Source: a virus
IMG/VR virus record: IMGVR_UViG_3300031992_000005
Coordinates: 288,001-352,000 of that record
Direction: 5' to 3' (one strand)
Length of the DNA stretch: 64,000 bases
Positions within the stretch are counted from its first letter, which is position 1. The number at the start of each line of letters is the position of its first letter. The translations under genes and the position numbers were made by a program. The notes beneath the pieces were generated by a model. That model was not told the origin of the DNA. It saw only the letters and a program-made list of their open reading frames with translations, and did not search any database. Of the stretch, positions 32,301-60,561 are shown in pieces.

Positions 32301-33559
32301 TTACTGGAATAATTGGTACAACAATAAGAATCCAAAAACAAGGAAGTGGAACATACATGCCAGTGACAAATGGAATTTATAGAATGAAATTAACCCTATC
32401 AATCGGAAATGCCAGAAAATCTAAGGGAGTGAGCCTTTGGGGTTATCATGGACACTGTAATATTCGACTTTCTACTCCAAGATCTCCATTCTTAAGTGTG
32501 AAACTCTATTCAGATACAATGTCTGCTCCTGGAATATATAACCTACTACCTAGTCCAATAACGGAGAAGTATGTATTATATGAACATGGATTAGATACTA
32601 ATAGTTCTTATAATGGGGTTCCACTAGGAGATCCAAGCGAATTTAAAAACTTCTATCAACCTGATTTTGAAACAGTATTATCTGCGAATTCTGACATATA
32701 CACAGACACTCGTAATGGAACGGAAGTATATTGTATAGATATGGATAATACTATTACTATTAACTATACTGCAAGTAGTACTTTCAAAAACCGAATCTTC
32801 TCTAAATATGGATTCCTGGGTGGATTCTTAATAAACAAGGTGACAAGAATTGAGTTCATTCATTATAGTGGTAGTAACACAGGTAGTTTCAATCTCTACA
32901 ATAACTCTACATTATTCTACGGAGATACGCATATAGAAGAGCGTATTCACTATGTTCAGGGAAATTCTAAAACTGGATTAGTACTAACCCCACTTAGCCC
33001 TACTACTGGATTAAGCGAAAGATATACATTATATCACACGGGGGATGATCCTACAACAGTAGTAAGAAGCCTTCCTGCAGGTGAGTTGTTCTTTGCGATG
33101 ACTAAGAAAATTTACCGAGATCACCTAGAAAATACAACCTTAAGGAGGAGAGTTAGAAGTGATAATCCTTGTACCATTAATTTCCTTAAGTGTTTCAAAT
33201 CATATGATCCAGGGATAGTTGTTATAAATGACGCAAATCCTACAAGTCCATCAGATAATTTTGAAGAAACCTATACCTCGGCCATAATTAATGGTAGAAA
33301 TGGTGACTCTGAATATGGAACAATCTACATTAGAGACATTATCACTGAGAAGAATGTAGGTACTAAGGTCTATGATGAATTAGGTCGTCCAGGAATTTTC
33401 TTAGATATTCCTAAATCAAAGTTTACTAACATAGGTAATAATATCTACGAATACGTAACAGATGAAATATATCTTAGTGATTTTATAACATTCAATAATG
33501 GTGATACATATAGTACACCTAAATCTCCAATAAGAATAAAAATACGAATTAAACTATAA
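26390..33559 (+). CDS. Giant structural protein (2389 aa), function unknown
   Basis: Uninterrupted 7.2-kb ORF in the structural operon with an ATGA overlap to the upstream gene. I recognise no catalytic motif. Confidence 0.7.
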   Translation: MIVEFENKFKVELKTPGNSFKLCTYRLGSGNDISNYFQFESLWDPDTRILNMALDLSFLRKDLVTDIDRTSDLTIAESCTYIDVYYSDLNDNIIGLAFKLKGDNENDPLNLCSFEAGREITDPTFWRNMNYINLRLPKDTKANIETLEINENTDFLEQLTSTEGINTFLVEGNKENDTILTKNSFAKHVRNTISKNNFSPMYLDYFGEKVLDIETFKYYKKIVITCVGPAKVETLENGTVTCSVNNRSSVAIKGYCLFDKYQVINDEYTLIEENLREDLSKTTLVRLIGGIETSDNVGIEIDQSGKQINIDDVDGVNSEINIAAKLTFTNKLGEEKEEITIVSNIVQINLFFSWYIEYFTSYTQKDDSGTSHPVILFDTTKENAGWTEGYRSDADEENTPGTILVYSSKRIPETGINVTADEGGSKQGIFESYFSVEIEDRGFSEEADKFIYAIKIKTKLENTEDIWCPIDPSTKESTLILMNINIGESIQEGEVSAQFYCVQRVISPLTIGRAEVKIKEQDNSRSYTWIENGVTELTFESGLGLTSLDGLFVCNPKIGYELWEVILDDEATKNLISYNVKNNIETFGATPKEDNEIFFYSRRNSELIERTLGTITFKRINNETKSYDNSYWQDRIYGDESNCATITLKRDALDSDSLWNVRSSTPYSYSDPLEGVSRRLYILSDQETQSFTIESSQSLLNHLSVTLCNYVETPPEGSGIYAETSEEREGLVTEFNKYFRVGEANSNNGNVGIKYSADTLSATITLKAINQDEYDWQPKCNNGKPIRVKISYGSEDESDPLLGRAETFYAIVRPSFAGTDITFRDTNWTDEEYPIMEEYTFPETGGNLPTYVVAPVESGSVGVFDHWIVLKKDPEITVKFQGKPDEGSVNYSCLLITKAQQSIWPALGLLTEISTKSKSEDSLSRDFDDLVIRRAAGDYDNIVEFYSDWLNQVCDHSSSRLKLSLGGAAESKTVKVSYECGGEDNESIEMHNDSLLPLREIGIYRLRIKCEHPFRVTLVDNNEERSSIGFYDSANDIIKRSTMLDINTYDNFVGTEVDLLFLGHENDEDSFSKSNPTLELKTRIQVTNLYDNTSVSFGLERTYYKVVSEENFEGWKEVLYSKITAIDPRTYNIFLPVNSNDALLKYTSAIETLRTVAGHNGITWTRTIKDKPNFSKDLYYRNLSYVNSQNAETNIPGHGYKYNSLDVSVGLISNIGNSYPIKCFGEIELRYQGDYLGEYKTYYFYKLLDVPTATIKTTSEDTSIPGLVIPYNRSSATVEIELPNNGNYRLFFQRAETAVETEIAKDDDTLVPITGSTTLDFFPISGRNNAFSVSIQDINNTAITFLGTLYAKTFVDKNSFAIDQNGEPLVFSEQEEVNRIAGVSTSNIVSVYWGNGEGVADYISGNYSLLSRQGETRTFIIHRADGRISQSEIETIMTNYKSILGSFYFNGQVYEGYNIEWKRLLDQALQCGNGVNQIYTYSNNNYIKLSDSIYYDFDINIRRNPSSFAKFKYLQELRGNYNPGGDSIGLNKTIIIDNDNDLKIPIAQECWEKGIVARRLDANRQTFTYLKNDTTITTGRYLYLGEQNKTVNILAGATDKHVYLEIYSVQLPAKNIDTTYDVVDVTAGDEEGRLLRSILSEYGDGLTIEYDEYMGIEVEKSVSAFTEVSDNDYRIYLDITLPENNSFYNYGDDESEYETITDSSYGPYEIRVTDGDYNSVTYYIYVSPRKELSLDLYQGLAEYDDVDNYYIGPNDIKVKTVLLSSNGDLFSIIGENIKNHEIKLFSQDYFYAVTNATDDMIRRGFSVKCDELRDDESSPFWKSPYPGEYKFKYNVTIPTEQSVTDPYDPNTFYAYDENVSGNLKEKKISYTLFPNRGVNVDLNNRFEYEFVSEYTVGSDRKRIYKIKSVNLGVSKIWSPYKEDLYSSIEVPKVDSNGIIAARRTGTAPDYTYNNEVEIVDGNPTNKKEEFLTGIIGTTIRIQKQGSGTYMPVTNGIYRMKLTLSIGNARKSKGVSLWGYHGHCNIRLSTPRSPFLSVKLYSDTMSAPGIYNLLPSPITEKYVLYEHGLDTNSSYNGVPLGDPSEFKNFYQPDFETVLSANSDIYTDTRNGTEVYCIDMDNTITINYTASSTFKNRIFSKYGFLGGFLINKVTRIEFIHYSGSNTGSFNLYNNSTLFYGDTHIEERIHYVQGNSKTGLVLTPLSPTTGLSERYTLYHTGDDPTTVVRSLPAGELFFAMTKKIYRDHLENTTLRRRVRSDNPCTINFLKCFKSYDPGIVVINDANPTSPSDNFEETYTSAIINGRNGDSEYGTIYIRDIITEKNVGTKVYDELGRPGIFLDIPKSKFTNIGNNIYEYVTDEIYLSDFITFNNGDTYSTPKSPIRIKIRIKL

Positions 33560-36048: not shown

Positions 36049-39000
36049 ATGGCAGAGGATACAAAATTACAAGGAACGAACATTGCCTCAAGAATTGTAC
36101 CATTCGATTCTCAGGATACCTTTCCTACCCACGAAGCCTTCTATGGTAGAGGTGGTTATAGAACAGTAGAGGACATTGCAAGCCGAGATGCCATTCCAGA
36201 ACAACGACTGGAAGAGGGTATGCTTGTGTACTGTAAAAATGACCCTACTGGCGTTCATACTTATAGATATATGGGTATGAAAGAAGGAACTAATACACGT
36301 ATTTGGAAAGAATTGAAGCTAGAGGGAACTGGAGTGCCTATCTATACTAATGCCAACGTCGAGGAGATGAGAGAAGCTGGTGTTAACGTAGATGAAATGG
36401 ATTACATAACTATTCCAGACGACGATGATATTGAGGGTGAGGTAACAAATAAAACTTATGAAACCACACAAAATGGTACTTATGTTGACATTCTATTCAA
36501 GGCACTTAGAGCATTACAATCCGAGGTTGCAAAACTTAAAAACTCGTTCCTTTATGGTATTGAGTCTTATAGCGGAACTGATACAGCAATGGCGGCTATA
36601 AGTGAAGAACTTGAAGAAGCCATAGCAGAAGAACCTCTTTGGGCAGTAGAAGAAGATGGACTTAGCAGCGTGTATGATTTGTTTGAAGCAGCCCCAGAAG
36701 CAATTCCAGCTGAATTTGAAGCAAGAGAGTCTAGTACTGTAGTTGCAACAGAAGATCATACCGGCGGACGATACTACGTTACAATCGACAGCCCTATAAA
36801 TATTCCAGTCACATGGAATGCGATCGAAAGAAGTGAGATAGGTAAAATAACCGATAGTAAACTATTTCTCTATCTAACTACTACTGGAGAGAATAATGCG
36901 GGGCTAAAATACGTTGTACATATTCAAGAGGACAGATTAGATGGAACCTCTAGAGAAATAGACTTCGACCTAAGACCATTAATAACTAGTGGTAGTATTA
37001 CATCTAGTAGTAAGGTATACAATACTTTAATTGTTATCAGTAGAAAACAAAAAGTAGCTACTTCTGCCAAAACAGATGAGGAGGGAAATATTTTACCACC
37101 TACTACCGAATATTATGGAAGTAATTTCATTTGGATAAGTGTATCAGACCCAGTTACAAATTCAACCATAAAGGAGGGATATTGGAAAGATAATACCATT
37201 TACGATGATCTTACCCAAGTCGATGAAGATACAGTATTTTACGATGGCATCCTTTCCTTAAGATCCGTTGATTTTTATAGTACTGTAATCTCTAAATTTC
37301 ACCTCTACTCCAAGTATCAAGATTTCACTAAAGGCGTAATACCTAGTAAACCATCAGATGATACTTGGAAATTTAAAGCTGCCCATATTACTATTAGGTC
37401 AGTTGATACTTTTGAAACATTAAAAGAGCTCAAAGATAAATTATTAAATAATGAATTAATATTAGTAGAGAGCTCATATACATTATATATAAAAATAGAT
37501 AATAAACTTGTTGCTATCGGCAGTCAATCTTCTCCAGGTGGAGGAGGGTCTAGCGAAGACGGAGGTAGTAGCGAAGATGAAGATACTGGTATGACAAAAA
37601 CAGAAATTATTCAATGGCTAAGTGAAAACGGAATAGTCGTTACAGAAAATGGAGGAGATCTTGTTCTTAATGATGTTGCGGACATAACATTTAAGCATGA
37701 GGGTACTGGGAAAACCTTCAAATTTACCGTTAATGAAAACGGTGAACTTGAAAGTCAGGAAATCCCCGATAAAACAATAAGCGAAGATTTAAAAGATTAT
37801 ACTCTCAAGGGAGACATGAATCTTCGAGGTTTTATTGCACAATATAGACTAAGAAGTAATGTCAATCAGACAGGTAATGCTAAACTAAAGAGTGATAGAT
37901 TAAAAATTGGTTCATTCTATGCACCTCTTAGTGGAGATGTTGTTCATGGATGTACTCACTCATTTATTGAGTTAGAAAATACTTCGGATATAGATATTCC
38001 ATTGAAAGGAATTTATCTACATGTAACTAAACCCGCGATTAATTCCTCAGGTGACGTAGTCCAAAACATATATAGTCTAGAATTAACAGGTATTATTCCA
38101 TCTGGAGGAACTTATTTAATAAGAGGCGCAAGACATGCAGAAGATGATGATGCTAATGCTTTTATAAAAGTAAAAACTTACGATCAAGAGTGGTATGTAG
38201 ACAGCCCTACTGATAGTGATAAGAAAGAATTACTTTCTCTAGAGATATTAGAAGATATTAATTACGGAGCTTCAGGAAATCCATATGGTCACGGTATTTG
38301 TCTAACTTATGGAAACTCTGGTTTTACTGGAGGAGATGGTGATAAAGTAGGACCTAGAACACAATTAGTTCGCGGAACTATAGCAAACGAAAAGTTTGAC
38401 AGTGTTACAATCATTGAATCCGGTGCATTGAAAAACAAAGAGGACTACCCTTATTGCTATCATAAAAACTTCATAGATGGTATATGTTACTATTTTGCAG
38501 TAAAATCAGGTAACTCTCCATATTGGGCAACTAATGCTATCGGTAAAAATGACGACAAGAGGACAATGTCTAATGTTATGTATAGAAATATGTTCGAACT
38601 TGATCCAGCTAATCAAGCCTATCAAGCATTGAATTCAAAAGATAGTTCAAGAAGAAGATGGGATAAGAACGGAACCGATGTTCAATTACTGGACTTATCT
38701 AAAGAATATATTTCTTTCCCAAAAACAGAAGACATCTACCCTTTATCTAAGTTTACTCCAAAAGCTTCTTGGGAACATCGCAATGTATGTACAGATAAAT
38801 CTAAGCTTGATCCTAACAAACCAAATATGGTAACTTGCTCCTTTGGTATTAATATCTATACCACTAGATGCTTTAACTGGATCTCCTTAGGATATTTTGA
38901 TGAATACATTTGGATAAAGAAAACGAAGGTTGGAAATAATTCTGTTAATGAGTCATGGAAAAGATTTGAATCTTACAAGGAAATAAGTGAGGAAACAGCT

Positions 39001-40995
39001 AACGCCAGCACTTATCCACGTAGAAAGGAATTTAACGTGACTGTAAACAATGCTATATATGCCAGAATAACTGGAAGATTTCCTGCTGACAATAGTTTCT
39101 ATACCGCACATAAGGTTATCATTGATATTACAGAAAATCCAGTTAGTACCAACCCAGAGGAGTATACCTATATAGTAGGTAGAGCAGATAAGAACGGTAA
39201 CCCTGATCCAGAACATACTTCTAGAGAACAAACCTTTACTTTATACCCAACTAGTTATACAACCAAGATCTATCAGATTACTGACCAACAGGGATTTCAC
39301 TGGATAGAGTATCAAGTCTGGGCAGCAGCTGCAGATAAGCTCAATGAAGTAATAGCAAGCGAAGTAGCAAGTTCCAATATAATACCTATTCTTGTTAATA
39401 CTGGTGATATGACTCAGAATGGTACTCGTATTAACGAATGGTTCGATTATTATCAGGCTGGTAGAAATCTATTCGATCACCTAGAACAAATGAACTGTGT
39501 GGGTAATAATGACTTATGTAACACTGATATAAATGCGCTAGGTACTGGAGATGATGAAGGTAAATCTAACTCCTACTATTTTCATGTATTCTATTGCTAT
39601 GAAGTAGATGTTACTAATAATATTCCCGTTCCACTATGTTCAGGTAGGAATGATGAATTCGATCCTAAATATATACCATCCCTATATTACTTTGATTCAA
39701 CTACTGATAGATTTTTAGTTATAAATAGTGAACTTACATCAGCCACTTCAAAGAACTGGTTTAAATTGATTCCTGACAATAATAGTAATACTAAATACAT
39801 CAATATTTATACAGGTTGGGAATTTGATACTAGTAATCCAGTAGTTCAGCATTACTATGGAGATGATTTTGTCCCTGTGTATAAAATAGTCTGGAATATA
39901 TTAAATGATGCAAGAACTAAAGGAAAAAAGACTATAGCAATCTGTCATGAAATGCCATTTACAGTTATTACCCATGCATCACTTGCCACAGGATCTGGTA
40001 ATGAATTAGTAGATAGATCAATTAGCTCTTCTAAACTTGTAGGCAGTCACTTAAACCAGATACATGCAAAAGAGTTAAGTAGCTCAGAGGGTAATGGTTA
40101 TACAATGAAGGGTACTTACTGGTTCAGTAGACTATTAGAATACTTTGACGTTAAATTAGTTATAGGTGGTCATAAGCATACATATGCATGTACTTATCCT
40201 ATTAGAGAAAACTATAATTACCTAGTAGATGGTAATATGGTAAATAGTTTAACCAATAAGATGGTAATGACGGAAGATACTCTAAAAGAGGATCCAATGA
40301 TCGTATTCGATGGCCAAACATCATCAAGTATAAAAAGAAATTTAACTAGATTCCCATATATAAAGAAAGATGATTTCGTAAGTCCTACGAATGATTCTAA
40401 TCACTTCTTCCCTTCTACTAATCTATACTCAGTAGGCGGAGGAGTAGCTTATGTAGAGGACCTTAACGTAAATTCAAATAATTTTGTTGGAGGAAATTTC
40501 TATAAGATAGTTCAGGGTCAATTCGTTGCAGCAGACACCTTTACGCAGGGTACAACTTATTACAAAAAGTTGACTGATTTTGATACTTTTGATGGTATTG
40601 TATATTTCATGTGTCAAGCTACTGGATATAAACTAAAGTCTAATAAAGAATTGCCATCAATTTTCCAAACCTTCTCAAAAATAATTCCAAAGACAGATAA
40701 TGCAGCTGGAGGAGATTCACCTAATAATAATCAATTACGTCCAATGTTTGCTAAGATAACGGTACAAAATGGTTCTTACAGTATAACCCTTTGTAGACTA
40801 GAAAACATTATGACTGAAAGAGAAGATCAAGGTTATAAATTTACTCAGACTGCATATGGAAAATCAGCTATCAAAATTAGTAATCTAGTAGTTAATTCTA
40901 CAAATAATTATGGAGATTGGATAGACGAAGACAATACTGATTATTCTACTCCAGAAAGTAGAGTTCTATTTAATAATAGTTATTTTACTGATTAA
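36049..40995 (+). CDS. Giant fibre-like protein (1648 aa) with lamin-tail-like (LTD) and metallophosphoesterase-like modules
   Basis: N-terminal fibre motif VEDIASRDAIPEQRLEEGMLVYCKND...WKEL. Gly/Ser/acidic linker SSPGGGGSSEDGGSSEDED. LTD-like segment at about 37890-38140: HSFIELENTSDIDIPLKGIYLHV...IPSGGTYLIRGA. Phosphoesterase-like motifs at about 39260-40210: GDMTQNG, VGNNDL, CHEMPF, GGHKHTY. Confidence 0.55.
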   Translation: MAEDTKLQGTNIASRIVPFDSQDTFPTHEAFYGRGGYRTVEDIASRDAIPEQRLEEGMLVYCKNDPTGVHTYRYMGMKEGTNTRIWKELKLEGTGVPIYTNANVEEMREAGVNVDEMDYITIPDDDDIEGEVTNKTYETTQNGTYVDILFKALRALQSEVAKLKNSFLYGIESYSGTDTAMAAISEELEEAIAEEPLWAVEEDGLSSVYDLFEAAPEAIPAEFEARESSTVVATEDHTGGRYYVTIDSPINIPVTWNAIERSEIGKITDSKLFLYLTTTGENNAGLKYVVHIQEDRLDGTSREIDFDLRPLITSGSITSSSKVYNTLIVISRKQKVATSAKTDEEGNILPPTTEYYGSNFIWISVSDPVTNSTIKEGYWKDNTIYDDLTQVDEDTVFYDGILSLRSVDFYSTVISKFHLYSKYQDFTKGVIPSKPSDDTWKFKAAHITIRSVDTFETLKELKDKLLNNELILVESSYTLYIKIDNKLVAIGSQSSPGGGGSSEDGGSSEDEDTGMTKTEIIQWLSENGIVVTENGGDLVLNDVADITFKHEGTGKTFKFTVNENGELESQEIPDKTISEDLKDYTLKGDMNLRGFIAQYRLRSNVNQTGNAKLKSDRLKIGSFYAPLSGDVVHGCTHSFIELENTSDIDIPLKGIYLHVTKPAINSSGDVVQNIYSLELTGIIPSGGTYLIRGARHAEDDDANAFIKVKTYDQEWYVDSPTDSDKKELLSLEILEDINYGASGNPYGHGICLTYGNSGFTGGDGDKVGPRTQLVRGTIANEKFDSVTIIESGALKNKEDYPYCYHKNFIDGICYYFAVKSGNSPYWATNAIGKNDDKRTMSNVMYRNMFELDPANQAYQALNSKDSSRRRWDKNGTDVQLLDLSKEYISFPKTEDIYPLSKFTPKASWEHRNVCTDKSKLDPNKPNMVTCSFGINIYTTRCFNWISLGYFDEYIWIKKTKVGNNSVNESWKRFESYKEISEETANASTYPRRKEFNVTVNNAIYARITGRFPADNSFYTAHKVIIDITENPVSTNPEEYTYIVGRADKNGNPDPEHTSREQTFTLYPTSYTTKIYQITDQQGFHWIEYQVWAAAADKLNEVIASEVASSNIIPILVNTGDMTQNGTRINEWFDYYQAGRNLFDHLEQMNCVGNNDLCNTDINALGTGDDEGKSNSYYFHVFYCYEVDVTNNIPVPLCSGRNDEFDPKYIPSLYYFDSTTDRFLVINSELTSATSKNWFKLIPDNNSNTKYINIYTGWEFDTSNPVVQHYYGDDFVPVYKIVWNILNDARTKGKKTIAICHEMPFTVITHASLATGSGNELVDRSISSSKLVGSHLNQIHAKELSSSEGNGYTMKGTYWFSRLLEYFDVKLVIGGHKHTYACTYPIRENYNYLVDGNMVNSLTNKMVMTEDTLKEDPMIVFDGQTSSSIKRNLTRFPYIKKDDFVSPTNDSNHFFPSTNLYSVGGGVAYVEDLNVNSNNFVGGNFYKIVQGQFVAADTFTQGTTYYKKLTDFDTFDGIVYFMCQATGYKLKSNKELPSIFQTFSKIIPKTDNAAGGDSPNNNQLRPMFAKITVQNGSYSITLCRLENIMTEREDQGYKFTQTAYGKSAIKISNLVVNSTNNYGDWIDEDNTDYSTPESRVLFNNSYFTD

Positions 40996-41000
40996 ATTTT

Positions 41001-44000
41001 ATGAAAAGACCTAATAAAAATAGTGCCACAAATGGTAATATCGTTTTCGACGACGATATTACCATGACTGGTACGAATAAAGCGTTTGGGAAAGATCTCC
41101 ATAGCGCGATGGAGAACCTTTGGTCAAGAACAGCTAAATTAGAAAATTACCTAAAATGGATCTATAAATACGGCGGCGTAGGTGGAACCGGCGGTGGAGG
41201 AGAGACTGCTACATCATATACAGTCTATGCAGAACTTAATCATAGGAAAGTTGTAGAAGATCCTACTGCATTTATCAACCTAGGTTCATCAGGTACTTTT
41301 CCACTTTTAATAAAAATTTCAAAACCAGGTGGAGCATCTTATAAAGTAAACTGTACTTTTACAGATAATACTGGATCTATTATAAACACTATTAATGAAA
41401 CATTAAACCTGGATAATAGTTATACGTTAGAAAGAGTTGTAAATATTTCTAAAAATGGTGTACTAAATATAAAAGTTACTGATAGTATCTATAATGAAAC
41501 TACACCACTCTCCACTAGATATATTACTGACCCATACAGATTTACGGGAGATTTAATAAATAATAGTGGTCGTGCATACTCAAATGAAATTTTTACGTCA
41601 GATATATTATCCAATGGACTATATCTAAGACTAAATTACCAGATATCAGTAGCGACTGAAGTATCCTATAAATTAAAAGTAACAACTCCTAAGTTAACTT
41701 TTAATAGCGAAGGCTTCACTGCGATGGAAGACTTAATAGTATCCAATACAGAGGAGGGTGATTATATAATTGATATTATACAGTTTCTGAGAAAATTTGA
41801 TTACGGCCTTACCGAGTCTAACTCAGGTAATTATAGTATTTCTGTCGAACTTCAAACAAAGATAGTTGGAGATCTAGAAACAAATTCTTATACTCCACTA
41901 AAGACGCCAATCTCTTTTACTATCGTTCCAAAAACACTATACCTACTAGTACAGTCTACTTCAGGTACACTATATCAAGTAGAACAAGAACCTGACTCAG
42001 TATCTACTGACGATCTATTCTCACCTGGTAGTATAACTTTTAAAGTTAAACCTTATTTTGAAAACGTTATAGGAAAAAGCTGTACTATCGACTATAAATT
42101 AGGAGATGAATTCGAATGGCAAACTATTTCAACTAACCTAAGAGATACCCAACAAATAACTATATATTCTACCAGACCTGGAGAGAATAGTATATCATTT
42201 GTTCTGAAATACGATAATAAAAAATATCCTACCCAAGAGCAATCCAATGTTGGTGAAGGTACCTACTATTTTTATATAAAAAATTCTACCTTTGACGGAG
42301 GCTGGTGGCATCAATTTGAGAAAAATACAGATAGACCTTTCTACGATGACCTAAACCATTACTTCAAAGTAACAGAGTGGTCACCAGAATTTAACCCGTT
42401 TAATGCTACGTTCGGTAGAAATCCAATAAAACAAACAGTAAATAAATCTCCTGTAACTTTAACGAATTTAACCTGTCCTACTGGATCTGACGGTTTTAAT
42501 ACGATAGTTAATATTGGTATTGAGTATAATACTATAAATGAAGATGGTGCACCAATACTAAAAATAACTGCATATGACGATACTGAATTAACACTTTATC
42601 AAAACAGAATTACCCTTGGGGCAAATTCCATTGAAGACGATAGATTATTCATTCCAAAAACAGACTACAGCTCTTTTACTGGATTAAATAATACAGAGGA
42701 CTATCACTTAATTTCTATTGTAAGTAGGCAAGTAAAGAAGTTAGGAAATACTGATAATCGTGGTAGAGAAGTAATTATTTACATAGATGGAGTCATTGAG
42801 GCTTGTTTTAAAACATTCCTTTATAGTCCAGGAACCCCATCAAATAACTTAACCGTAAAGGATATAAGTCTATATAGCGTCAACGCAAATTTCAACTTAT
42901 TTGATATAGCATACTTCAGTCCAATCGAGTCTAAGGTAAGTACGGAATATTATATTCCAGAAGATGTTACAATTTATCAATATTACTTGAAATATAAGGA
43001 AACACTCTTAAGCAAAACACTTACTGAAGAGGAAATTAACTTGCTGACTTACTACGACAATATTGATTTTAATCCAGAAAACGGAGACATTTTCTGTTCT
43101 GAGGATGCTATGAATAATATAGCGAGAAACCTCAATGTCCCTGTAATGGCTATTCTAGTAGATGATAATAAAAACGGTAATTATAAAGATTTATTAGGTG
43201 GCTATTATCTAGAGTCGAGTACAGAAGAACTTGAAACAAAAGCTACTTTAAAGTGGAGTGGATTAAAGGGAAAAACTTCGTTAACTGATATAAGCTTTCC
43301 AAATAGAACCATAAGTAACACAGGTAGTTATATAGACTGGACAAGTAATATCCATTTTTATGTAAAAATACAGGGTTCATCTACAAAGGGATATCATATT
43401 AAGAATTACACGCTTACCTTAAAAGATGATGAAAACCTATATATTCCGTTGTTTTCACCAAACTTTAAAAATAACGACACAACTACATTTCTCCCTGAAC
43501 ACTCATTTACTCTAAAAGCCGACGTAGTAGATTCCAGTCACTCTAATAATACTTCTATTGGAAATTTTGTTAATGACATCACTACTAAATTCAAAACAAG
43601 CCCTACTTCAGTGGATGATGCCTTCTCTGGATACATAAAAAACTGTTTGACAGGTTTTCCTTTTCTAATTTTCATGAAATTCATCGACCCAAACAAGTCG
43701 CCTGATGCTCAAGATGAAAATTACTACTATCATGGAGTATATAATTTTAACTTAGGTAGAGAATCCGAGTATAACCTGGGCTATAAAGATTACAATGTCT
43801 TCTGTGATAGTAACGGAAAAAGTATACTAGAAGATGCACCAGATTCTGGTGGATTTTCATTTCACATGGTCACTAAGTCCAGTAGTGTTGTAAAAAATGG
43901 AGTAATTACTGCAGAAATTCAAGGAAACAGCTCATTTCTAGACTTTTCACAATTTGATGAATCATTATTGTTCCAGAATGACAGTGTCTCTGACGAAAAC

Positions 44001-47000
44001 GTAACTACCATGTTCGGTAAAATTACAGATGAAAATCCGGACGTATCCTATATCAGAGGAGAAAACCTACAAAATCAAGATGCAAGAAATATCTTACAAA
44101 GATTTGTAGAAAAAGTAACCTATGCGGGTGGTTATGTCTTCACTCAGCTAAAGAAAACCTTTAGTGACGATGGGAGTGCAGGAGTCTTATATGGTTACGG
44201 ATCTAAGCCCCCACAAGGTTATAAAGCAGTTGGTAAGATAAAAGTTTGGAATGAAGATTTAGGTGAAATAGAAGAAAAAACCCTTCCATTAAACCAAGTC
44301 CCTAACTATCGACACCAATTTATTAGAACAGTCAGTGGAATTACGCCAAAAGCTGGTTTAACCAGACCAGGTACACTAAATGACCTCATGGATTTGGTTA
44401 GAAAAGACGAAAATGATCCTGATGCTGGAATTCCTTTACTAGACTTTGACAGCGTAAGTGAATATTATACTATCTGTATGGCATTTGGTTTGATAGACTC
44501 TGTCCAAAAGAATCTTACATTAAAAACATGGACCGCAGATAAGGAGAGCGGACTTGGTACTTTTTATGTAGCATTCTACGACATGGATACTTGCTTAGGA
44601 ATTGATAATGCTGGAAAGAAAGTGAACTACACTGCATTCTCTGATTATTGGACAAAGAATGAATCAGAATCAGATGGAACAAGTACTAGTGAAACAACCT
44701 CAAGTGGAACCGTAAGTTATAAAACAATTACACCAATTTCAGCTACAGTCTACAGAGACTATTCCCCTTCTGGAGGAGAATACTTCGACGTTGCTAGTTC
44801 CTACCTATTTGCGATACCTAAATACGCAACTTATATTGCAGGAAAACTTAATCTTAATGCAAGCGATAGTGCGTTTACAGAAAAAATTACAAACTGGCCA
44901 AGGCAACTCTGGGAAAAGTGGAGATCGAGAAGAAATCCGTCGGATCATAAAATAGGTTGTCTAGAATCCGCTGACTATTTTATAAAGACTTATTTCTCTA
45001 ATAACTTAGGATCAGTTGGCATTCCATTGATTAATGCAAATTACAGAGCAAAATATTTAGTTCAATTGTACTATTCAGGTGATACTACAAATTCTAAAGA
45101 TGAACTTGGTAAGTTTAATGGAACACGCATCGCTAGAGTAAAAGAGTGGTTAAATAATCGTCTTCACCTCCTAGATGCATATTTTAACATAGCAAGAGGT
45201 GTAAATAATCCTATAATGTTCTATAGAGAATGTAATGAGGAAATAGATGGAGAAATGCAGACATTCTATAAGTATACTTCTACGGAAGAAGATACTAGCG
45301 CAGACCATTATATGTCAGAACCTACTATTTCAGAATACACGTCCGCTACTAACCCAGATGTTTATATAAACTCGGATATTTTTGATAAGCTTTCTCTACA
45401 ATCAAGTATACCTTTTGTCGTTACTGTACGTGCTAAAGAAAACTCACCTCTTATTATAACATGTGCAAACTGGACGAAGAGATATCTTATTGGTGGTAAT
45501 AATTATTATCAAATCCCAGTCCCTGTATCAGGAACCCAGGCATATAGATTATTAGGTTCAAAAAACTGGACCTATATGGACAGTATTAATGGATTTCACT
45601 TAGATGGTACATTTTATATAAACACTCAATATATAGATCAACTTGTGGGAGATGATAATTCATCAGAGGCGAAAGAACTGACCTTTGATAATAGCGCTAC
45701 CGATAATATCCTTATGCCTTCATTGAAGACAATCAGTTTAACTAGTCCTAAATATAAAGGTACACTTAAATTAGTTGGTACAAACTATACTAACTTAGGT
45801 ACAATTGATTTAAGTAATTCTAGAATAGGTTTAAACATGCAAAACACTACTTGTACGGAACTTAATCTATCTAACGTAAATGGGTCAAATAATCAGTATA
45901 ATATAGTGGATTGTCTAAATCTTTCAAAAATTACAATCGTGAGTGCCTATATGTCCTCGCTAATAATAAAGCCTATCCATCCAGATATTATTACTAAAAA
46001 CTGTGAAACAAGCTTTGGTAAGGTAACTAGTAGTAATGTAATTAACCTAGCAAATATTACACCTACTACTTCCAATAATCAAAACACTCCTTTTGGAAAA
46101 ACAGGCTCTGGATTTTATCTAAAAAATACTCATATTCGTGAAATAAATATATCGAATACTAAAATTAATGAAGATAGATCCAGAATAGAGATTGATGGAG
46201 ACGACACCTTGTATAGCATAACGATTGCAGGATTTTCGGTGGTTGTGATAAAGAATTGTCAGAATCTTAATAAGATAAACATATCCGACCCTGAAGCAGG
46301 TATTGGTGGCGATAAGCTGAGAAGACTATGTATTCAAAATTGTGGTAATGCTGGTACAGACTTAACTATAAATTCTACAGAAAGAGGACATCTGAATTTA
46401 ACGGATTTCTCTGACCTAAACTTTGTGAATTTTAGAGAATGTACCAACATAACTAGCATTGAGTTTAGCAATACAGGGGTTTATCTGGACTATGACGCTT
46501 TCTATTCCGACAGTAATCTAAGTACCATTGATGGAAAAGCCTATATAATAGGTACTACTACCACTGGAACAAGGATCAGACCTACCTTCTATCTTTGTAA
46601 AAACTTTAAACTAACGAAAAGTAATGGAACTACTTGCTGTGATTTATTTGTCATAGAACAAGCAGTATCTCTTAATAGTACATTCTCTATTGGAAATAGT
46701 ATTTCAAAAGAAGGCGAAGGAAAAATAACACGAACTTTGGCTAAAACATTTATAGAAAGAATCCCAACAAATAACAACATTACCGATATAACCAACATGT
46801 TTTGTGGAAATAGAATTGAGTATAATGAAACACTATTAGTTAGTGACATAAAATCTACGAAAAACTACATAGACATGTCGGTTTTTAAGAAAGTAACAAA
46901 CGTAAGTGGGGCTTTTAACTATAATTTGATTAGTGCTTGGCATCCTAAATGGTTCTCATTCGGAGCAGACGTCGATACCATTAATTCCTTTGAAAACTAC

Positions 47001-49652
47001 ATGGGTAGAGAGACTTCTACTACAGTTACCACAGTAATGAATGTTTTCTATGATATTATAGAAAAAATTAGAACAATAGGAGCAAATAACGCCAATACCT
47101 CTGGATACCAGTATGTTAGATTAAAGATAATCTCGGATAATAAAAGCAATCCTACAGTCATAGACCATTTTAAAGCATCTGACTTCTTCTTCCCAAGTAA
47201 AGAAGAAACAACACGTTACCCTACTAAGGTAGAGACCCTACAGCTCATTAGTTTTAGTGGTGATGCTATAGTAGATTTTAGTGGTTTGTTTAGTTACGGA
47301 CATTGGAATAGTCTAAATACGATCTATAGATTTGAATTTGAAACTACCAATACAAGCGGAAATAGTATTAGAGTAAATAATATTATGGGCTTAGACGGTC
47401 TATTCAATCTTGGATATCTTGAAGTAACCTTGCCTCCTTTAGAAGGAGGTATTTTGGACTCTTTTAGAGTAGATTTCGATTCTCCGTTAACAATTACCAG
47501 TAGATTGGATGGTTTAACTTATACAGGACAAACTTTTATTGATCTATATGGTTTTGTAGCTTGGGAAAATTACAGAGGCAAGACTGTAGATTTCTTTAGA
47601 AGAGAATATACTTCAAGTGGATACTCAGATTGGGATGAGGGTAACTTCACAATAAGAAAGTACATATCCTACGATAACTTTAAAAGTCTGTGTGGAATAC
47701 TATTTAACAGTAATTGTAATTGGACCGGATTTAGTAACCTATTTAGAAATTGTACAGTCGTGGCTAGTCCAGATCAGCACGTTGTTATAGAACTTACTGA
47801 TAAAGATACTAGTGAAGATGATAGTTTAAGCATGACGGGGGTTAAGTCAATTAATTCAATGTTTGATAATTTCCGTATCATCAGAAAACAACCTGGCTAC
47901 ACTATTACAAAGGAAGATTTAGTTGATAGCAATTATTTAGAAAGTGAATACGTAGAATTTAACTATGATAGACTATTAGGTATCTTTCCAAGCCTGACAA
48001 GTGCTGCTTTTGCGTTTAGAAACGTGAAATTTAAAAGAGCATTGCCAATTGATTTTTGGAGGAAAAGGAAAAAAACAACTGAAGACGTTTATATAAAAAT
48101 AGATGATAGTGGGTTGGATATATATCAAAGTCCTGATGAAAACTATTTTAATAATGAAGTTTTAGGAAGATATTTTAAAAAAGCCACGCTATACACGTAT
48201 AGTTATAACCTAGATTTAGAAAACCTACAGAGCTGTTTTTATAATACTAAGTGGTTTTATGGAATAGAAAATGGAGAGACTATTCAGGCTAAAAACTTTA
48301 ATCCAGAACAACTAAGTGATGTTCCTAAAAACTCAATAGTTATTGATTCTACTGGAGAAGTTATAGATGAGGTTGGCTACTACTATTATAAGTTGGCAAG
48401 TGGAAGTAACAATGCCGAAATTGGCGGCACTATTACAAAAATCTATTATTGGACACTTACAAAGCAAGTAAATGGTCTGGAATCATCTACGGAATTCTCT
48501 GACATAGCAGAATTAACTCCAGAATCTAATCCTGAGGGTATAGGAGAATATGTAGAAGAGTGTACAATAAACGGATCGGGAGACACTATTAAGAACTACT
48601 CAGTATCAAATACTGCTAACGCCATTAGTAGATCCTTCATTGCACCAGATATCCTTTATCCAATAAAACCTAACTGTTCACTTAGAAACACGTTCTATTC
48701 AGATGGTTCAGATTCAATGGAGGGATTGATTCCTAAAAATCTATTAAAAAATTCAACTTCACCTAATATTAACGGATTATTGACTAACCAATCCATTATT
48801 CCTAGGAAAATAGGCGTTCTTGAACAGACTGACTCGTCAAATCCTCCTAAAGTGGAAAGAGTTAGCTATTATACATTCGTTCCCGAGAACTTTACTCGAA
48901 TAACATCATTAGAGGGCGCATTTAAGTTTAAAATACTATTACCTAATAGTAGCACAGAAAGTGGTGATACTATTTCATACAGTAAATACTACATATTGCT
49001 GAATACTTCTTTTAAGAATAATAGGTCAAGTATTACAGCTTTCAGAAATCCTTTCCCAGAATACTGCATAGATGGTGACAATACAACGGTGGGACTCTGG
49101 AGAACTAGTACGAATGGATGGTATAACACTGCGAATACTTCATATGATAAAGTCCTCTACTACGGTTTAATGTATAACCCAGAATACGATACTAATGGTG
49201 TTTTGGTAGGAGGTTCGGAAGGTATTGATATTTCAACCAGTGGATTTAGAAATGCAACCTTCGACAATATGTTAACAGCTGGAGGAACGAGTAATAAAGG
49301 TAAAGGTACTGTAATAATGAGATACTTAACAGGTTATTTATTTAGTTATAATACAACACTAAACCAAATCAAGAGAGCTGCAACCAGTTCTTCTAGTTCG
49401 ACTCTTAATCCTATATTTGGTACTTTCTATCATTATCAGTATCAAAATTGTGAAAACTTTACTAACAAAGCACTAATTCTTCCAGGAATAACGGGACAGC
49501 CAGGAGCATTTAATAATAGTAACTTTATAGCATTCAGTTATGACTTTTTAGTACATAAATCACAATTACCTCAAGGAAATAAGAATAATTATGACGAGTT
49601 TATAAAAAGTTCTGACCCTAATGCAAAAGTCGTACTATATCCTCGAGATTAA
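41001..49652 (+). CDS. Giant tail protein (2883 aa) with CotH-like and leucine-rich-repeat-like regions
   Basis: CotH-like region at about 43240-45190: VKIQGSSTKGYHIKNYTLTLK...FTLKADVVDSSHSNN...FYVAFYDMDTCLGIDN...RIARVKEWLNNRLHLLDAYF. LRR-like region at about 45680-46560: LNLSNVNGSNNQYNIVDCLNLSKITI..., NCQNLNKINISD..., FRECTNITSIEFSNTGVYLDYDAFYSDSNLSTIDG. Confidence 0.5.
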   Translation: MKRPNKNSATNGNIVFDDDITMTGTNKAFGKDLHSAMENLWSRTAKLENYLKWIYKYGGVGGTGGGGETATSYTVYAELNHRKVVEDPTAFINLGSSGTFPLLIKISKPGGASYKVNCTFTDNTGSIINTINETLNLDNSYTLERVVNISKNGVLNIKVTDSIYNETTPLSTRYITDPYRFTGDLINNSGRAYSNEIFTSDILSNGLYLRLNYQISVATEVSYKLKVTTPKLTFNSEGFTAMEDLIVSNTEEGDYIIDIIQFLRKFDYGLTESNSGNYSISVELQTKIVGDLETNSYTPLKTPISFTIVPKTLYLLVQSTSGTLYQVEQEPDSVSTDDLFSPGSITFKVKPYFENVIGKSCTIDYKLGDEFEWQTISTNLRDTQQITIYSTRPGENSISFVLKYDNKKYPTQEQSNVGEGTYYFYIKNSTFDGGWWHQFEKNTDRPFYDDLNHYFKVTEWSPEFNPFNATFGRNPIKQTVNKSPVTLTNLTCPTGSDGFNTIVNIGIEYNTINEDGAPILKITAYDDTELTLYQNRITLGANSIEDDRLFIPKTDYSSFTGLNNTEDYHLISIVSRQVKKLGNTDNRGREVIIYIDGVIEACFKTFLYSPGTPSNNLTVKDISLYSVNANFNLFDIAYFSPIESKVSTEYYIPEDVTIYQYYLKYKETLLSKTLTEEEINLLTYYDNIDFNPENGDIFCSEDAMNNIARNLNVPVMAILVDDNKNGNYKDLLGGYYLESSTEELETKATLKWSGLKGKTSLTDISFPNRTISNTGSYIDWTSNIHFYVKIQGSSTKGYHIKNYTLTLKDDENLYIPLFSPNFKNNDTTTFLPEHSFTLKADVVDSSHSNNTSIGNFVNDITTKFKTSPTSVDDAFSGYIKNCLTGFPFLIFMKFIDPNKSPDAQDENYYYHGVYNFNLGRESEYNLGYKDYNVFCDSNGKSILEDAPDSGGFSFHMVTKSSSVVKNGVITAEIQGNSSFLDFSQFDESLLFQNDSVSDENVTTMFGKITDENPDVSYIRGENLQNQDARNILQRFVEKVTYAGGYVFTQLKKTFSDDGSAGVLYGYGSKPPQGYKAVGKIKVWNEDLGEIEEKTLPLNQVPNYRHQFIRTVSGITPKAGLTRPGTLNDLMDLVRKDENDPDAGIPLLDFDSVSEYYTICMAFGLIDSVQKNLTLKTWTADKESGLGTFYVAFYDMDTCLGIDNAGKKVNYTAFSDYWTKNESESDGTSTSETTSSGTVSYKTITPISATVYRDYSPSGGEYFDVASSYLFAIPKYATYIAGKLNLNASDSAFTEKITNWPRQLWEKWRSRRNPSDHKIGCLESADYFIKTYFSNNLGSVGIPLINANYRAKYLVQLYYSGDTTNSKDELGKFNGTRIARVKEWLNNRLHLLDAYFNIARGVNNPIMFYRECNEEIDGEMQTFYKYTSTEEDTSADHYMSEPTISEYTSATNPDVYINSDIFDKLSLQSSIPFVVTVRAKENSPLIITCANWTKRYLIGGNNYYQIPVPVSGTQAYRLLGSKNWTYMDSINGFHLDGTFYINTQYIDQLVGDDNSSEAKELTFDNSATDNILMPSLKTISLTSPKYKGTLKLVGTNYTNLGTIDLSNSRIGLNMQNTTCTELNLSNVNGSNNQYNIVDCLNLSKITIVSAYMSSLIIKPIHPDIITKNCETSFGKVTSSNVINLANITPTTSNNQNTPFGKTGSGFYLKNTHIREINISNTKINEDRSRIEIDGDDTLYSITIAGFSVVVIKNCQNLNKINISDPEAGIGGDKLRRLCIQNCGNAGTDLTINSTERGHLNLTDFSDLNFVNFRECTNITSIEFSNTGVYLDYDAFYSDSNLSTIDGKAYIIGTTTTGTRIRPTFYLCKNFKLTKSNGTTCCDLFVIEQAVSLNSTFSIGNSISKEGEGKITRTLAKTFIERIPTNNNITDITNMFCGNRIEYNETLLVSDIKSTKNYIDMSVFKKVTNVSGAFNYNLISAWHPKWFSFGADVDTINSFENYMGRETSTTVTTVMNVFYDIIEKIRTIGANNANTSGYQYVRLKIISDNKSNPTVIDHFKASDFFFPSKEETTRYPTKVETLQLISFSGDAIVDFSGLFSYGHWNSLNTIYRFEFETTNTSGNSIRVNNIMGLDGLFNLGYLEVTLPPLEGGILDSFRVDFDSPLTITSRLDGLTYTGQTFIDLYGFVAWENYRGKTVDFFRREYTSSGYSDWDEGNFTIRKYISYDNFKSLCGILFNSNCNWTGFSNLFRNCTVVASPDQHVVIELTDKDTSEDDSLSMTGVKSINSMFDNFRIIRKQPGYTITKEDLVDSNYLESEYVEFNYDRLLGIFPSLTSAAFAFRNVKFKRALPIDFWRKRKKTTEDVYIKIDDSGLDIYQSPDENYFNNEVLGRYFKKATLYTYSYNLDLENLQSCFYNTKWFYGIENGETIQAKNFNPEQLSDVPKNSIVIDSTGEVIDEVGYYYYKLASGSNNAEIGGTITKIYYWTLTKQVNGLESSTEFSDIAELTPESNPEGIGEYVEECTINGSGDTIKNYSVSNTANAISRSFIAPDILYPIKPNCSLRNTFYSDGSDSMEGLIPKNLLKNSTSPNINGLLTNQSIIPRKIGVLEQTDSSNPPKVERVSYYTFVPENFTRITSLEGAFKFKILLPNSSTESGDTISYSKYYILLNTSFKNNRSSITAFRNPFPEYCIDGDNTTVGLWRTSTNGWYNTANTSYDKVLYYGLMYNPEYDTNGVLVGGSEGIDISTSGFRNATFDNMLTAGGTSNKGKGTVIMRYLTGYLFSYNTTLNQIKRAATSSSSSTLNPIFGTFYHYQYQNCENFTNKALILPGITGQPGAFNNSNFIAFSYDFLVHKSQLPQGNKNNYDEFIKSSDPNAKVVLYPRD

Positions 49653-57890: not shown

Positions 57891-58131
57891 AGGATGTGTA
57901 TGTTGGGGTAGGTATGTAGATGATAAATCCCTCGAAGAATTATCAGAAGAAGAGAAAAATAATTTACTTCAAGTCTTAAAAGATCAATTAACTTTAAGCG
58001 ACTTAAATGAAGTATTTGACTTAATCTTAGATAATCATTATACAGATTACGAATCCGACGACAAACCATGTGAATGCTGCGGAGATTACGTATGCACATG
58101 GAAACTTGAAATAAAAAACCTAGGGAATTAA
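57871..58131 (+). CDS. Small acidic protein with CxC / CxCCxxxxC cysteine clusters
   Basis: 86-aa ORF overlapping the phosphatase 3' end by 20 nt. Cysteine clusters are GCVCWG and PCECCGDYVC. Confidence 0.55.
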   Translation: MLLEKTEGCVCWGRYVDDKSLEELSEEEKNNLLQVLKDQLTLSDLNEVFDLILDNHYTDYESDDKPCECCGDYVCTWKLEIKNLGN

Positions 58132-58149
58132 TCCCTAGGTAATTTTTTT
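58118..58149. terminator. Bidirectional terminator hairpin between convergent genes
   Basis: ACCTAGGGA (58118-58126) pairs with TCCCTAGGT (58132-58140) around a 5-nt loop. Followed by AATTTTTTT on the plus strand, with an A-run upstream. Both convergent ORFs end inside or next to the hairpin. Confidence 0.7.
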
Positions 58150-58757
58150 AATCTTCCTTTAACATAAATAATCATTCCGTCATTTTCGGCTAAACTATCT
58201 CTCTTTTCAATAAATTTTGTAGGTAAATTAGAAATAGTTCCCAAGAACTTCGGACAATAGCACTGAAGAAATCTTATAAGTGGTGGAGTATACTCATTCA
58301 CTTCCCTACCCACATCATGAATATACATAGACAATACACAACCATTATATCTCGACATAGGGAATTGAAAATCTATATAAGGTAAATGCTCCTTACCACC
58401 AGTAACTTCACTTTTGTAATAAATCCTATCAGTACAACAACTAGTTATAGTATTTTCCGCAATATTAATAACAATTGGTTTCTCTATCGTACTATGGGGC
58501 ATGAAGAGCAATAATTCAAATTTAAGCTTATGAATAGAAACATAAAATTCTGAACTCTTATCATAGATTATAGTAGCGCCTAATTTAATTATTCTCATCA
58601 AGATATCATCAGTTGAAACTGCAATTCTATCTTCCGTAAGGAGAAACCAATCCATTGATTCTAGGAATTTCTCTAATCCTAATATATCATTGTCAGTTAA
58701 TTTACGGCTAACTACATATGTCTTTTCTATTTTAGCCAAGTTTACCCTACTTAACAT
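58128..58757 (-). CDS. Family-B paralog 1 (B1), function unknown
   Basis: The ORF is open to 58811. The ATG at 58757 gives MLSRVNLAKIEKTYVVS, which aligns with the N-termini of the other B members. Shared motif WFLLTEDRIAVSTDDI. Confidence 0.65.
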   Translation of the reverse strand: MLSRVNLAKIEKTYVVSRKLTDNDILGLEKFLESMDWFLLTEDRIAVSTDDILMRIIKLGATIIYDKSSEFYVSIHKLKFELLLFMPHSTIEKPIVINIAENTITSCCTDRIYYKSEVTGGKEHLPYIDFQFPMSRYNGCVLSMYIHDVGREVNEYTPPLIRFLQCYCPKFLGTISNLPTKFIEKRDSLAENDGMIIYVKGRLKKLPRD

Positions 58758-58794
58758 ATTCTTACACATATGTAGAGAATATGTAACACTAACC

Positions 58795-60044: not shown

Positions 60045-60561
60045 GATGTAATGGGTTTACTAAATCTAATAATTCAAAGAAATTAAAAATATTTAAAGGT
60101 AATGAACTGGCAGGAATCGTGATTAGAGGATACGATGATGTATAATCAGCTCTCACAGCAGTATCCGATATCCTATTCTCTAGGTATACTCGATACTCAT
60201 ATAATAACGAGATTTGACAACCAATATAATCCTGTTTCGCAAAAAAGTTATTTATATCAAGATTAGTATGAACTAACTTTTCCTCTCCATTAGTACTAAT
60301 TAGGATAAGGTGTCGTATATATACACTTTTAATTAGTAAACTTTGAATTATATCTGGGATTATTGCCTTCAACTGTATATAGTGAATCGCAGAAATCATG
60401 ATAACATCCGGATCATATTCAATTCCACCTGAATAAGGAATACCTAATTTCTCCAATTCCATGGCGAAATTAAACTGATGTTCATCCTTATCTTTGCCAT
60501 GAAATCTCATTTCAATAAACGAATTTCTTCTATGTTTATCTAAAATAATTTCTTCTTCCAT
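60025..60561 (-). CDS. Family-A paralog 1 (A1), function unknown
   Basis: 178-aa ORF with DKHRRNSFIEMRFHGKDKDEHQFNFAMELEKLGIPYSGGIEYDPDVIMISAIHYIQLK. Confidence 0.75.
   Translation of the reverse strand: MEEEIILDKHRRNSFIEMRFHGKDKDEHQFNFAMELEKLGIPYSGGIEYDPDVIMISAIHYIQLKAIIPDIIQSLLIKSVYIRHLILISTNGEEKLVHTNLDINNFFAKQDYIGCQISLLYEYRVYLENRISDTAVRADYTSSYPLITIPASSLPLNIFNFFELLDLVNPLHHDNDKL

Follow-up and report, generated by a model that had tools for sequence, protein, structure and literature searches.

Layout of the locus

The stretch of DNA analysed here, referred to as the window, comprises 64,000 nt of the IMG/VR virus record IMGVR_UViG_3300031992_000005 (positions 288,001 to 352,000). At 41001-49652, on the plus strand, it contains an open reading frame (ORF) with an ATG start and a product of 2,883 amino acids (aa). 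A reading of the letters alone (the original prediction) had taken this product for a tail protein with a CotH-like, atypical kinase-fold region followed by leucine-rich repeats (LRRs). Our results suggest that the protein carries a divergent CotH-type domain with an apparently complete set of catalytic-site residues, and that its gene is inherited together with the phosphoesterase-like gene just upstream. The features discussed below are as follows.

36049..40995, plus strand: cassette partner, 1,648 aa; tail-fibre-like N-terminus, and at aa 1073-1379 a metallophosphoesterase domain of calcineurin-like type
41001..49652, plus strand: giant multi-domain protein with predicted CotH fold and LRRs, 2,883 aa, whole ORF
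41001..41210, plus strand: N-terminal conserved segment, a probable coiled coil followed by the Gly-rich motif KW(I/L)YKYGGxGGxGGGG
41211..43076, plus strand: beta-rich N-terminal region, aa ~70-692, family not assignable
43077..45257, plus strand: predicted CotH-type atypical protein-kinase fold, aa 693-1419, core about 780-1400
43368..43550, plus strand: N-lobe motifs QGSSTxxYxxKN (aa 791-802) and FTLKADVVDSSHxNN (aa 836-850)
44496..44591, plus strand: predicted catalytic loop D1166-S-V-Q-K1170-N1171 and metal-binding motif F-Y-D1194-M-D1196-T
45612..46826, plus strand: irregular LRR solenoid, BspA/LRR_5-like, aa ~1538-1942, possibly to ~2170
46827..49652, plus strand: C-terminal ~940 aa, fold not assignable, with no variable repeat of a diversity-generating retroelement (DGR)

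The window has a G+C content of ~31-38%, and its plus strand carries nearly all long ORFs up to ~57.9 kb. The 2,883-aa protein is recorded in identical form on five metagenomic contigs (sample SRR9006730 for the contig shown), and the module region of IMG/VR contig 3300032030_000046 is also identical to that of the window. Since two of the five contigs belong to the 0.2-1 Mb class, the DNA is probably that of an uncultured jumbo phage of the gut.

A divergent CotH-fold domain

The proposal of a CotH domain had been based on four short strings, which we located at aa 790-808 (nt 43368-43424), 836-850 (43506-43550), 1188-1203 (44562-44609) and 1379-1395 (45135-45185). They are not chance resemblances, as each lies over positions at which 139 diverse representatives of the family agree completely or to at least 90%: Q791, G792, K801, N802, K839, D841, D844, S845, N850, F1192-T1197, N1203, W1383, R1387 and D1392. 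Direct searches did not detect the relationship. Scans of the whole protein and of four fragments against Pfam, PHROGs and NCBIfam returned nothing relevant, and the CotH and LRR models of Pfam matched neither the protein nor the fragments even at E<=10. The fragment aa 701-1433 had no sequence match in the PDB (phmmer), and the family profiles A2 and A4 did not retrieve CotH from the PDB sequences (hmmsearch); 5jd9 came up with the CotH-subfamily profile A5 alone (E=0.0046). Among 50,697 phage records, megablast found no match to the gene. The original prediction was to fall if searches found no CotH or LRR fold and the likeness stayed confined to the quoted strings; with the direct searches empty, a plain profile search would have looked negative by that standard. 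Assignment to CotH therefore draws on profile-profile and structural evidence.

One line of this evidence is transitive. Profile A4 retrieved a protein, P0170, with an E-value of 9.4e-9 as calculated for a database of 5.8 billion sequences, and P0170 itself scores 60.4 bits with the Pfam CotH model, whose cutoff is 23.8. Comparison of A4 with P0170 by hhalign gave 97.1% probability and placed the window motifs DSVQKN...FYDMDT on NDALARN...AYDMDT of P0170, inside the Pfam CotH match. As a broader reference we used 120 proteins with a precomputed PF08757 assignment (P0170-P0289) and a 114-sequence alignment of their CotH domains. Aligned with these 114 sequences, the 139-sequence window family gave 99.6% in global mode (E=1e-22, 383 columns) and 98.5% in local mode (E=3.6e-15, 336 columns), with reversed and column-shuffled templates as controls giving 0.6% or less. 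In agreement with this, A4 against the CotH alignment A5 gave 98.5% (E=3.8e-15).

Structure prediction led to the same family. An earlier AlphaFold model, built from a shallow alignment of fragmentary homologues, had a predicted local distance difference test score (pLDDT) of 47.5 and was discarded. With a diverse 20-sequence alignment, AlphaFold2 gave a pLDDT of 73.7 and a predicted template-modelling score (pTM) of 0.81. The only significant matches of this model in a Foldseek search of the PDB were the two entries of the Bacillus cereus CotH kinase, 5jd9 (E=6.7e-6) and 5jda (E=9.7e-6), with probability 1.00 and template-modelling (TM) scores of 0.63-0.65 normalised to the target; the next match was at E=0.42. 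In BFVD it matched the homologues from crAss-like phages, gp353 of phage G, and proteins of uncultured phages that bear the names 'Spore coat protein H kinase fold' and 'CotH kinase protein'.

It might be argued that the similarity is spurious, comprising a few short motifs in an unrelated fold. The failure of the window protein and of the family profile to match CotH directly in Pfam or among PDB sequences would fit such a view, which is contradicted by a profile alignment of 336-383 columns that spans both lobes and was lost in the scrambled controls, by a PDB search in which the CotH kinase is the only significant fold match, and by BFVD matches that include named CotH kinases. We regard a spurious match as extremely improbable. 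The kinase-fold proposal is thus borne out for aa ~780-1400, where the likeness extends well past the quoted strings: as judged from the profile comparisons and the predicted structure, this region is a CotH-fold domain of divergent sequence that exceeds compact CotH by about 300 residues.

The comparison with known proteins is instructive. Like the Bacillus CotH kinase (PF08757; 5JD9/5JDA), the window domain has a bilobal atypical kinase fold in its predicted structure, and it shows the same order of motifs (RG..S..KKSY, L....DPS..RN, D....N, WD.D) with the catalytic and metal-binding Asp. It differs in that identity is ~10%, that it is ~2x longer through insertions between and within the lobes, and that it forms part of a 2,883-aa phage protein that also has LRRs; neither a spore context nor a CotB/CotG-like substrate is known for it. 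A second group, the short phage tail-fibre-type CotH proteins to which P0170 belongs (about 400-900 aa, some with BppU_N or collagen N-termini), shares nearly all the invariant residues of the CotH core and likewise occurs in phage-type proteins. In these, the core is compact (about 390 columns), detected by Pfam and C-terminal, and there are neither LRRs nor giant size.

Conservation of the predicted active site

We aligned 25 diverse full-length members of the family, which are 20-30% identical to the window protein. Of 41 invariant columns, about 40 fall within or just before aa 791-1392, the only outliers being D655, just upstream, and P2601. The invariant residues include Q791, G792, K801, N802, E833, K839, D841, D844, S845, N850, R920, E972, D1166, S1167, K1170, N1171, F1192-T1197, N1203, D1263, R1308, K1351, R1387 and D1392, and the 139 representatives give the same picture. 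That so many of these residues are charged or polar suggests an enzyme active site.

The original prediction had proposed a check of the catalytic positions. For the roles of individual residues in CotH we relied on work on the B. subtilis protein, which is inactivated by D228Q and by D251A (PMC7821199). In the alignment of profile A5 with 5jd9, the catalytic region corresponds to 'FDGFVHN...WDYD' of B. cereus CotH, in which the two Asp are 23 apart, equal to the spacing of D228 and D251 in B. subtilis. Through A5, these two Asp correspond to D1166 and D1194 of the window protein, with N1171 at the D+5 position. For the N-lobe, alignment through the CotH-subfamily profile shows that YRGAHIREFEKKSY and EFHLNSEFMDPSLIRN of B. 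cereus CotH correspond to IQGSSTKGYHIKNY and SFTLKADVVDSSHSNN. D1166, N1171, D1194 and D1196 are invariant in the family, as are K801 and K839. On this alignment the full set of catalytic-site residues (QGSST..K.N, LKAD..DS, D1166, N1171 and D1194/D1196) is apparently complete, and we infer that the CotH-fold core most likely still catalyses phosphoryl transfer.

These residues also bear on the idea that the CotH fold has become a non-catalytic binding scaffold and the protein a long receptor-binding fibre, as has been proposed for the CotH invasins of Mucorales. Fungal CotH proteins are described as invasins, the LRRs could serve as binding modules, and an extracellular site would lack ATP. 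What is invariant across the 139 representatives (28-40% identity), however, is not a surface patch; it is the catalytic-site set D1166, K1170, N1171, D1194, D1196, K801, K839, D841 and R920, and pseudokinases normally lose such residues. A pure adhesin is thus very unlikely.

A family of giant proteins in gut phages

When the CotH-like fragment was used in tblastn against phage genomes, 36 records were found. They include the crAss-like phages cr7_1 and cr124_1 (40% identity, E=7e-129), cr52_1, cr60_1, cr109_1, cr113_1, cr107_1, PhicrAss002 and IAS virus, the Bacteroides thetaiotaomicron phages DAC16, 19, 20, 22, 23 and SJC03, and all Lak megaphages of Prevotella, with Bacillus phage G gp353 as a more distant match. 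An exhaustive profile search returned 1,938 cluster representatives at E<=1e-3, 359 of them at E<=1e-30, which puts the size of the family at 1,938 clusters or more (50% identity). Of the best 150 representatives, nearly all have 2,400-3,100 aa and carry the module around aa 650-1400; by sequence, the family is one conserved giant architecture.

A further comparison is with the crAss-like giants (cr7_1 gp22, cr124_1, cr52_1 gp11, PhicrAss002 gp20, IAS virus) and the DAC16-type and Lak homologues. These are true homologues of the window protein in the CotH module (28-41% identity, E down to 7e-129) as well as in the LRR and C-terminal part, are 2,500-2,660 aa long and are preceded by the same phosphatase-like gene. 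Their genomes, in contrast, are of other types, belonging to podoviruses of ~95-104 kb, phages of ~178 kb and megaphages of ~540 kb, against a window phage in which a tape-measure-like gene is present. The window protein also exceeds them slightly in length, and its partner is larger, with 1,648 aa against about 1,120-1,180 aa.

A CotH module on a phage tail had been considered unusual. That assessment does not hold, because several homologues already carry the relevant annotation: cr7_1 gp22 is 'Similar to spore coat protein/internalin/CotH kinase', cr52_1 gp11 is 'internalin-like' and crAss002 gp20 is 'transferase/internalin-J, leucine rich repeat'. BFVD, too, holds several phage proteins named CotH kinase. 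Phage proteins of >2,000 aa that combine CotH and LRRs have also been described in work on DGRs: Roux et al. reported a viral cluster of DGR targets, PC_00012, with for example a 2,284-aa protein bearing a CotH-like domain, and Macadangdang et al. described Bacteroides variable proteins of >2,000 aa in which the active-site motifs of CotH (5JDA) stand beside carbohydrate-binding motifs and LRRs. The window protein therefore adds one member to a family already flagged by database annotation and the DGR literature. An experimental study of a phage CotH protein, or of crAss002 gp19/gp20, was not found in our literature searches.

Among the Pfam-CotH reference proteins, which come from metagenomes, many are of phage tail type, with the domain fused to N-terminal tail modules such as BppU_N (PF10651), to CBM_5_12, to SLH or to collagen repeats. 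It thus looks common for phage appendages to carry a CotH domain.

Leucine-rich repeats and the terminal regions

BspA/LRR_5-like repeats had been placed at 45680-46560 (aa 1560-1853). This part of the original prediction stands at the level of the family profile and is weak in the window sequence taken by itself. The region is part of a longer stretch, aa ~1538-1942 and perhaps as far as ~2170, that aligns with LRR proteins of solved structure in searches with the family profile. The whole-protein family profile A6 had 36 sequence matches in the PDB at E<=1, nearly all of them LRR proteins, at profile positions 1398-1955, equivalent to window aa ~1538-2173. The best were 4fs7 (E=1.9e-5), the NLR 9h2l (1.5e-4) and the 'cell surface protein' 4gt6 (6.8e-4), followed by about 25 further LRR structures, and the aligned segment of 4fs7 is itself a Pfam LRR_5 region of BspA type (E=9.1e-106). 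Among 17 full-length relatives, Pfam found LRR_4 in three, LRR_EndoS in two (2.3e-5) and, weakly, LRR_5 in one; no Pfam LRR model matched the window protein or its fragment aa 1501-1933. Repeat units of some 20-30 residues are present, and matches to a simple LRR-unit pattern are 3.3-fold more frequent in aa 1560-1990 than in the rest of the protein. The best solved-structure matches after the CotH module are therefore BspA-type LRR surface proteins of gut bacteria (LRR_5 PF13306; 4fs7, 4gt6), from which the window repeats differ in being irregular, degenerate and below every Pfam LRR threshold. On these profile matches, the assignment to BspA-type LRRs is right for the family, with an irregular copy in the window.

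Less can be said of the two ends. In the N-terminal conserved segment, residues K52, W53, G58, G61 and G62 are conserved in the whole-protein alignment A6, whose profile weakly matched coiled-coil spike fusion cores among PDB sequences (profile positions 11-108, E=0.005-0.018); a role in oligomerisation or attachment is possible. The giant proteins of the window share no N-terminal anchor by all-against-all BLASTP. The following beta-rich region has the motifs YHL..I, YIDG..E (G597), N632 and D655, of which G597, N632 and D655 are invariant or nearly so. The window fragment gave zero Pfam matches over aa ~70-692, and Laminin_G_3 was matched in one of the 17 relatives (E=5.4e-5), which weakly suggests a ConA/LamG-like domain at about aa 440-690. 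At the other end, motifs of the type 'F.N...IP..F' recur through the C-terminal ~940 aa and suggest further degenerate repeats; past A6 profile position 1955, neither the PDB nor Pfam gave a match, so that a fold could not be assigned to the last ~700-940 aa. The 1,383 aa that comprise the LRRs and the C-terminal part are homologous to cr7_1 gp22 and the Lak proteins, with 23-28% identity in the C-terminal parts.

A conserved two-gene cassette with a phosphoesterase-like gene

The ORF upstream ends 5 nt before the start of the CotH gene. An LTD domain had been proposed for this adjacent gene, which our scans do not uphold: the LTD match is sub-threshold in Pfam (17.3 bits against a cutoff of 34.3), and the solid domain there is a calcineurin-like phosphoesterase, which the original prediction did not mention. 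The Pfam Metallophos model scores 23.3 bits against a cutoff of 21.5, and the motifs GD, GNND and GHKH are present (aa 1050-1379; window 39196-40185). Searches of the PDB and NCBIfam with the partner yielded nothing beyond this marginal Pfam match. Over residues 7-65 the partner shares 54% identity with a protein annotated as a tail fibre.

The pairing recurs. With the partner as query, tblastn found essentially the same phage records as with the CotH fragment, and the phosphoesterase gene lay directly upstream in every locus examined, namely crAss002 gp19/gp20, DAC16_85/86, cr7_1 gp20(+21)/gp22, cr52_1 gp10/gp11 and phage G gp352/gp353, and in IAS virus too; in Lak-A1 the partner occupies 118899-123536 and the CotH module follows at 126072. 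We extended this to 78 IMG/VR loci (L006-L083) that had been fetched by their CotH module, on contigs of about 90 kb to over 550 kb. The phosphoesterase core was present in 76 of the 78, and in 75 the CotH module follows it on the same strand with a median separation of 2.8 kb, the distance expected of direct adjacency; in one of the two loci that lack it, the sequence before the CotH module extends for only 1.2 kb. From this recurrence we conclude that the unit of inheritance is a two-gene cassette common to very different phage types, between which it has probably spread horizontally. The literature we searched contained no mention of a phosphoesterase-CotH gene pairing. A review of Crassvirales lists phosphatase domains among tail-spike annotations (PMC10136315).

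Such tight linkage of a kinase fold and a phosphoesterase fold would fit a write/erase pair, in which the kinase phosphorylates virion proteins or itself in the infected cytoplasm, so as to pattern or mature tail appendages, and the phosphoesterase reverses or edits its work. ATP would be available during assembly, and the only biochemically characterised role of a bacterial CotH is the phosphorylation of the structural coat proteins CotB and CotG (PMC7821199), on which this analogy leans. It would leave the LRRs and the long C-terminal region unexplained, and no substrate with Ser/Lys/Arg-rich repeats like those of CotB or CotG was seen, though no search aimed at one was made; we consider a kinase confined to assembly distinctly improbable.

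Comparison with DGR-diversified CotH proteins

By their descriptions, the DGR-diversified phage CotH proteins (PC_00012 of Roux et al.; 'domain group 3' of Macadangdang et al.; noted also by Benler et al.) are similar to the window protein: they exceed 2,000 aa, occur in phages and prophages of gut Bacteroidota, and combine CotH motifs with carbohydrate-binding motifs and LRRs. They differ in that each ends in a variable region of C-type-lectin type, made hypervariable by a DGR. No template/variable repeat pair touching 41001-49652 was found within the 64-kb window, beyond which the genome extends, and the window protein was accordingly rejected as a DGR target. No reverse transcriptase was identified among the window ORFs scanned. 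The window's only long repeat pair is a 110-nt stretch, 91% identical, between the adjacent paralogous genes 3502-4488 and 4504-5346 (both phrog_2990); we rejected it as a DGR repeat, as its mismatches are of all kinds.

Among the 78 related loci, a DGR-like pair was present in one only, L030 (IMGVR_UViG_3300026526_000463), at 19426-19543 and 20195-20312. The two copies are 118 nt long and 82% identical, with 20 of the 21 mismatches at adenines of the second copy, and they lie downstream of the CotH-module ORF in another reading frame. The ORFs of this locus are broken up in-frame, which may reflect stop-codon recoding. Since the pair occurs in this locus only, and outside the CotH ORF, the branch to which the window protein belongs is not generally diversified by DGRs.

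Gene neighbourhood

Upstream of the cassette, a tape-measure-like protein of 1,864 aa is encoded at 6896-12490, with an internal domain of M23 peptidase/endolysin type (aa ~1000-1150). It is preceded by the overlapping ORFs 5900-6655 and 6576-6893, at the site where a tail-chaperone frameshift pair would be expected. The ORF 15154-15849 has a sub-threshold match to the C-terminal beta-helix (spike) of T4 gp5. Directly after it, within the putative baseplate module, lies a homing-endonuclease gene (15860-16849; phrog_314, E=3.9e-20). In the same gene block, a 2,389-aa ORF (26390-33559) had no significant match in Pfam, PHROGs or NCBIfam. Downstream of the cassette are an Amidase_3 endolysin and a repeat-containing fibre-like protein. 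Further on, eight tandem paralogous ORFs of about 180-227 aa, with a 90-nt repeat family (69-79% identity), occupy 58128-62920 on the minus strand, opposite to the structural genes. Judged by position, a gene between the tape-measure-like and lysis genes is compatible with a tail protein, and the cassette occupies the usual place of baseplate appendages.

A proposed function at the cell envelope

Taken with the evidence above, the position of the cassette leads us to favour, with moderate confidence, a model in which the CotH-LRR protein is a virion-borne product of the late structural module. Both proteins of the cassette would be expressed late and carried in the virion as parts of the tail or of a baseplate appendage. 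The LRRs and the C-terminal part would most likely bind a ligand and so position the protein on the envelope of a Bacteroidota cell, where the kinase-fold domain and its phosphoesterase partner would act on a phosphate-bearing or phosphorylatable substrate of the envelope or the virion during adsorption or entry.

A number of observations weigh against this model. The gathering score of PF08757 (23.8 bits) is reached neither by the whole protein nor by the fragment aa 701-1433, so that we place the domain on a distant branch of the CotH superfamily and do not call it a Pfam-defined member, and among 20 diverse relatives CotH was touched in only one, at E=0.69. The structural overlap with CotH is partial (TM 0.35 normalised to the query, root-mean-square deviation 7.8 A), owing to about 300 residues of insertions relative to compact CotH. 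In the window protein the LRR signal is weak, the unit pattern occurring eight times against 3.9 +/- 1.9 in shuffled sequences, 85 of 2,000 of which reach eight. The GNH[D/E] motif of the partner carries Asn at the position of the canonical His, which makes the catalytic competence of this protein uncertain. The predicted virion location rests on gene position, and an extracellular kinase would have no obvious supply of ATP. Finally, PhicrAss002 encodes the cassette (gp19/gp20) despite its simple tail, which would fit an internal or ejected protein equally well.

Several of these points would be accommodated if the cassette encoded a pair of ejected effectors. Both giants would then be packaged and ejected ahead of or with the DNA, like the cargo proteins of crassviruses or the virion RNA polymerase of N4; the kinase would modify host or phage proteins for takeover, and the phosphoesterase would oppose or complement it. 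The cytoplasm would supply the ATP that a kinase needs. The tail of PhicrAss002 is simple, without obvious appendages, and the paper assigns no tail or receptor-binding proteins (PMC8042965), even though the cassette proteins of this phage have 2,622 and 1,153 aa. Ejection of very large cargo proteins in a partly unfolded state is known from Crassvirales (PMC10136315), and for the DGR targets that bear CotH, a role in manipulating host signalling was proposed by Roux et al. On the other hand, LRRs, a possible LamG domain and modules of carbohydrate-binding type are typical of surface-binding proteins; the published relatives are DGR-diversified at a C-terminal lectin fold, suggesting an exposed ligand-binding end; the N-terminus of the partner resembles a tail fibre; and the window gene follows baseplate-like genes rather than lying in a head or cargo module. 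We therefore consider ejection unlikely and retain the model of an envelope-binding virion protein.

In a wider proposal, which we put forward tentatively and regard as doubtful, the kinase-fold and phosphoesterase-fold pair would be a virion-borne enzymatic module that moves horizontally among unrelated lineages of Bacteroidota phages (crAss-like podoviruses, phages of ~180 kb, Lak megaphages and the window phage), and that edits phosphate on the host envelope (capsule, lipopolysaccharide or surface proteins) or, after ejection, on proteins of the host, as an obligatory step of infection. The intact catalytic residues and the obligatory phosphoesterase partner together suggest that structural modules may bring phosphoryl-transfer chemistry to the infection and not only glycan hydrolysis. 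If this is true, phage entry or takeover would involve a phosphoryl-transfer chemistry that has no characterised precedent. The main value of the finding lies in the conserved kinase-fold/phosphoesterase-fold cassette and its cultured carriers. Since cultured phages carry the cassette, the question is directly testable, and the B. thetaiotaomicron phages DAC16 to DAC23 and SJC03 are carriers that can be grown in the laboratory. The family is carried by some of the most abundant phages of the human gut, the crAss-like phages, including the cultured PhicrAss002, and by the Lak megaphages.

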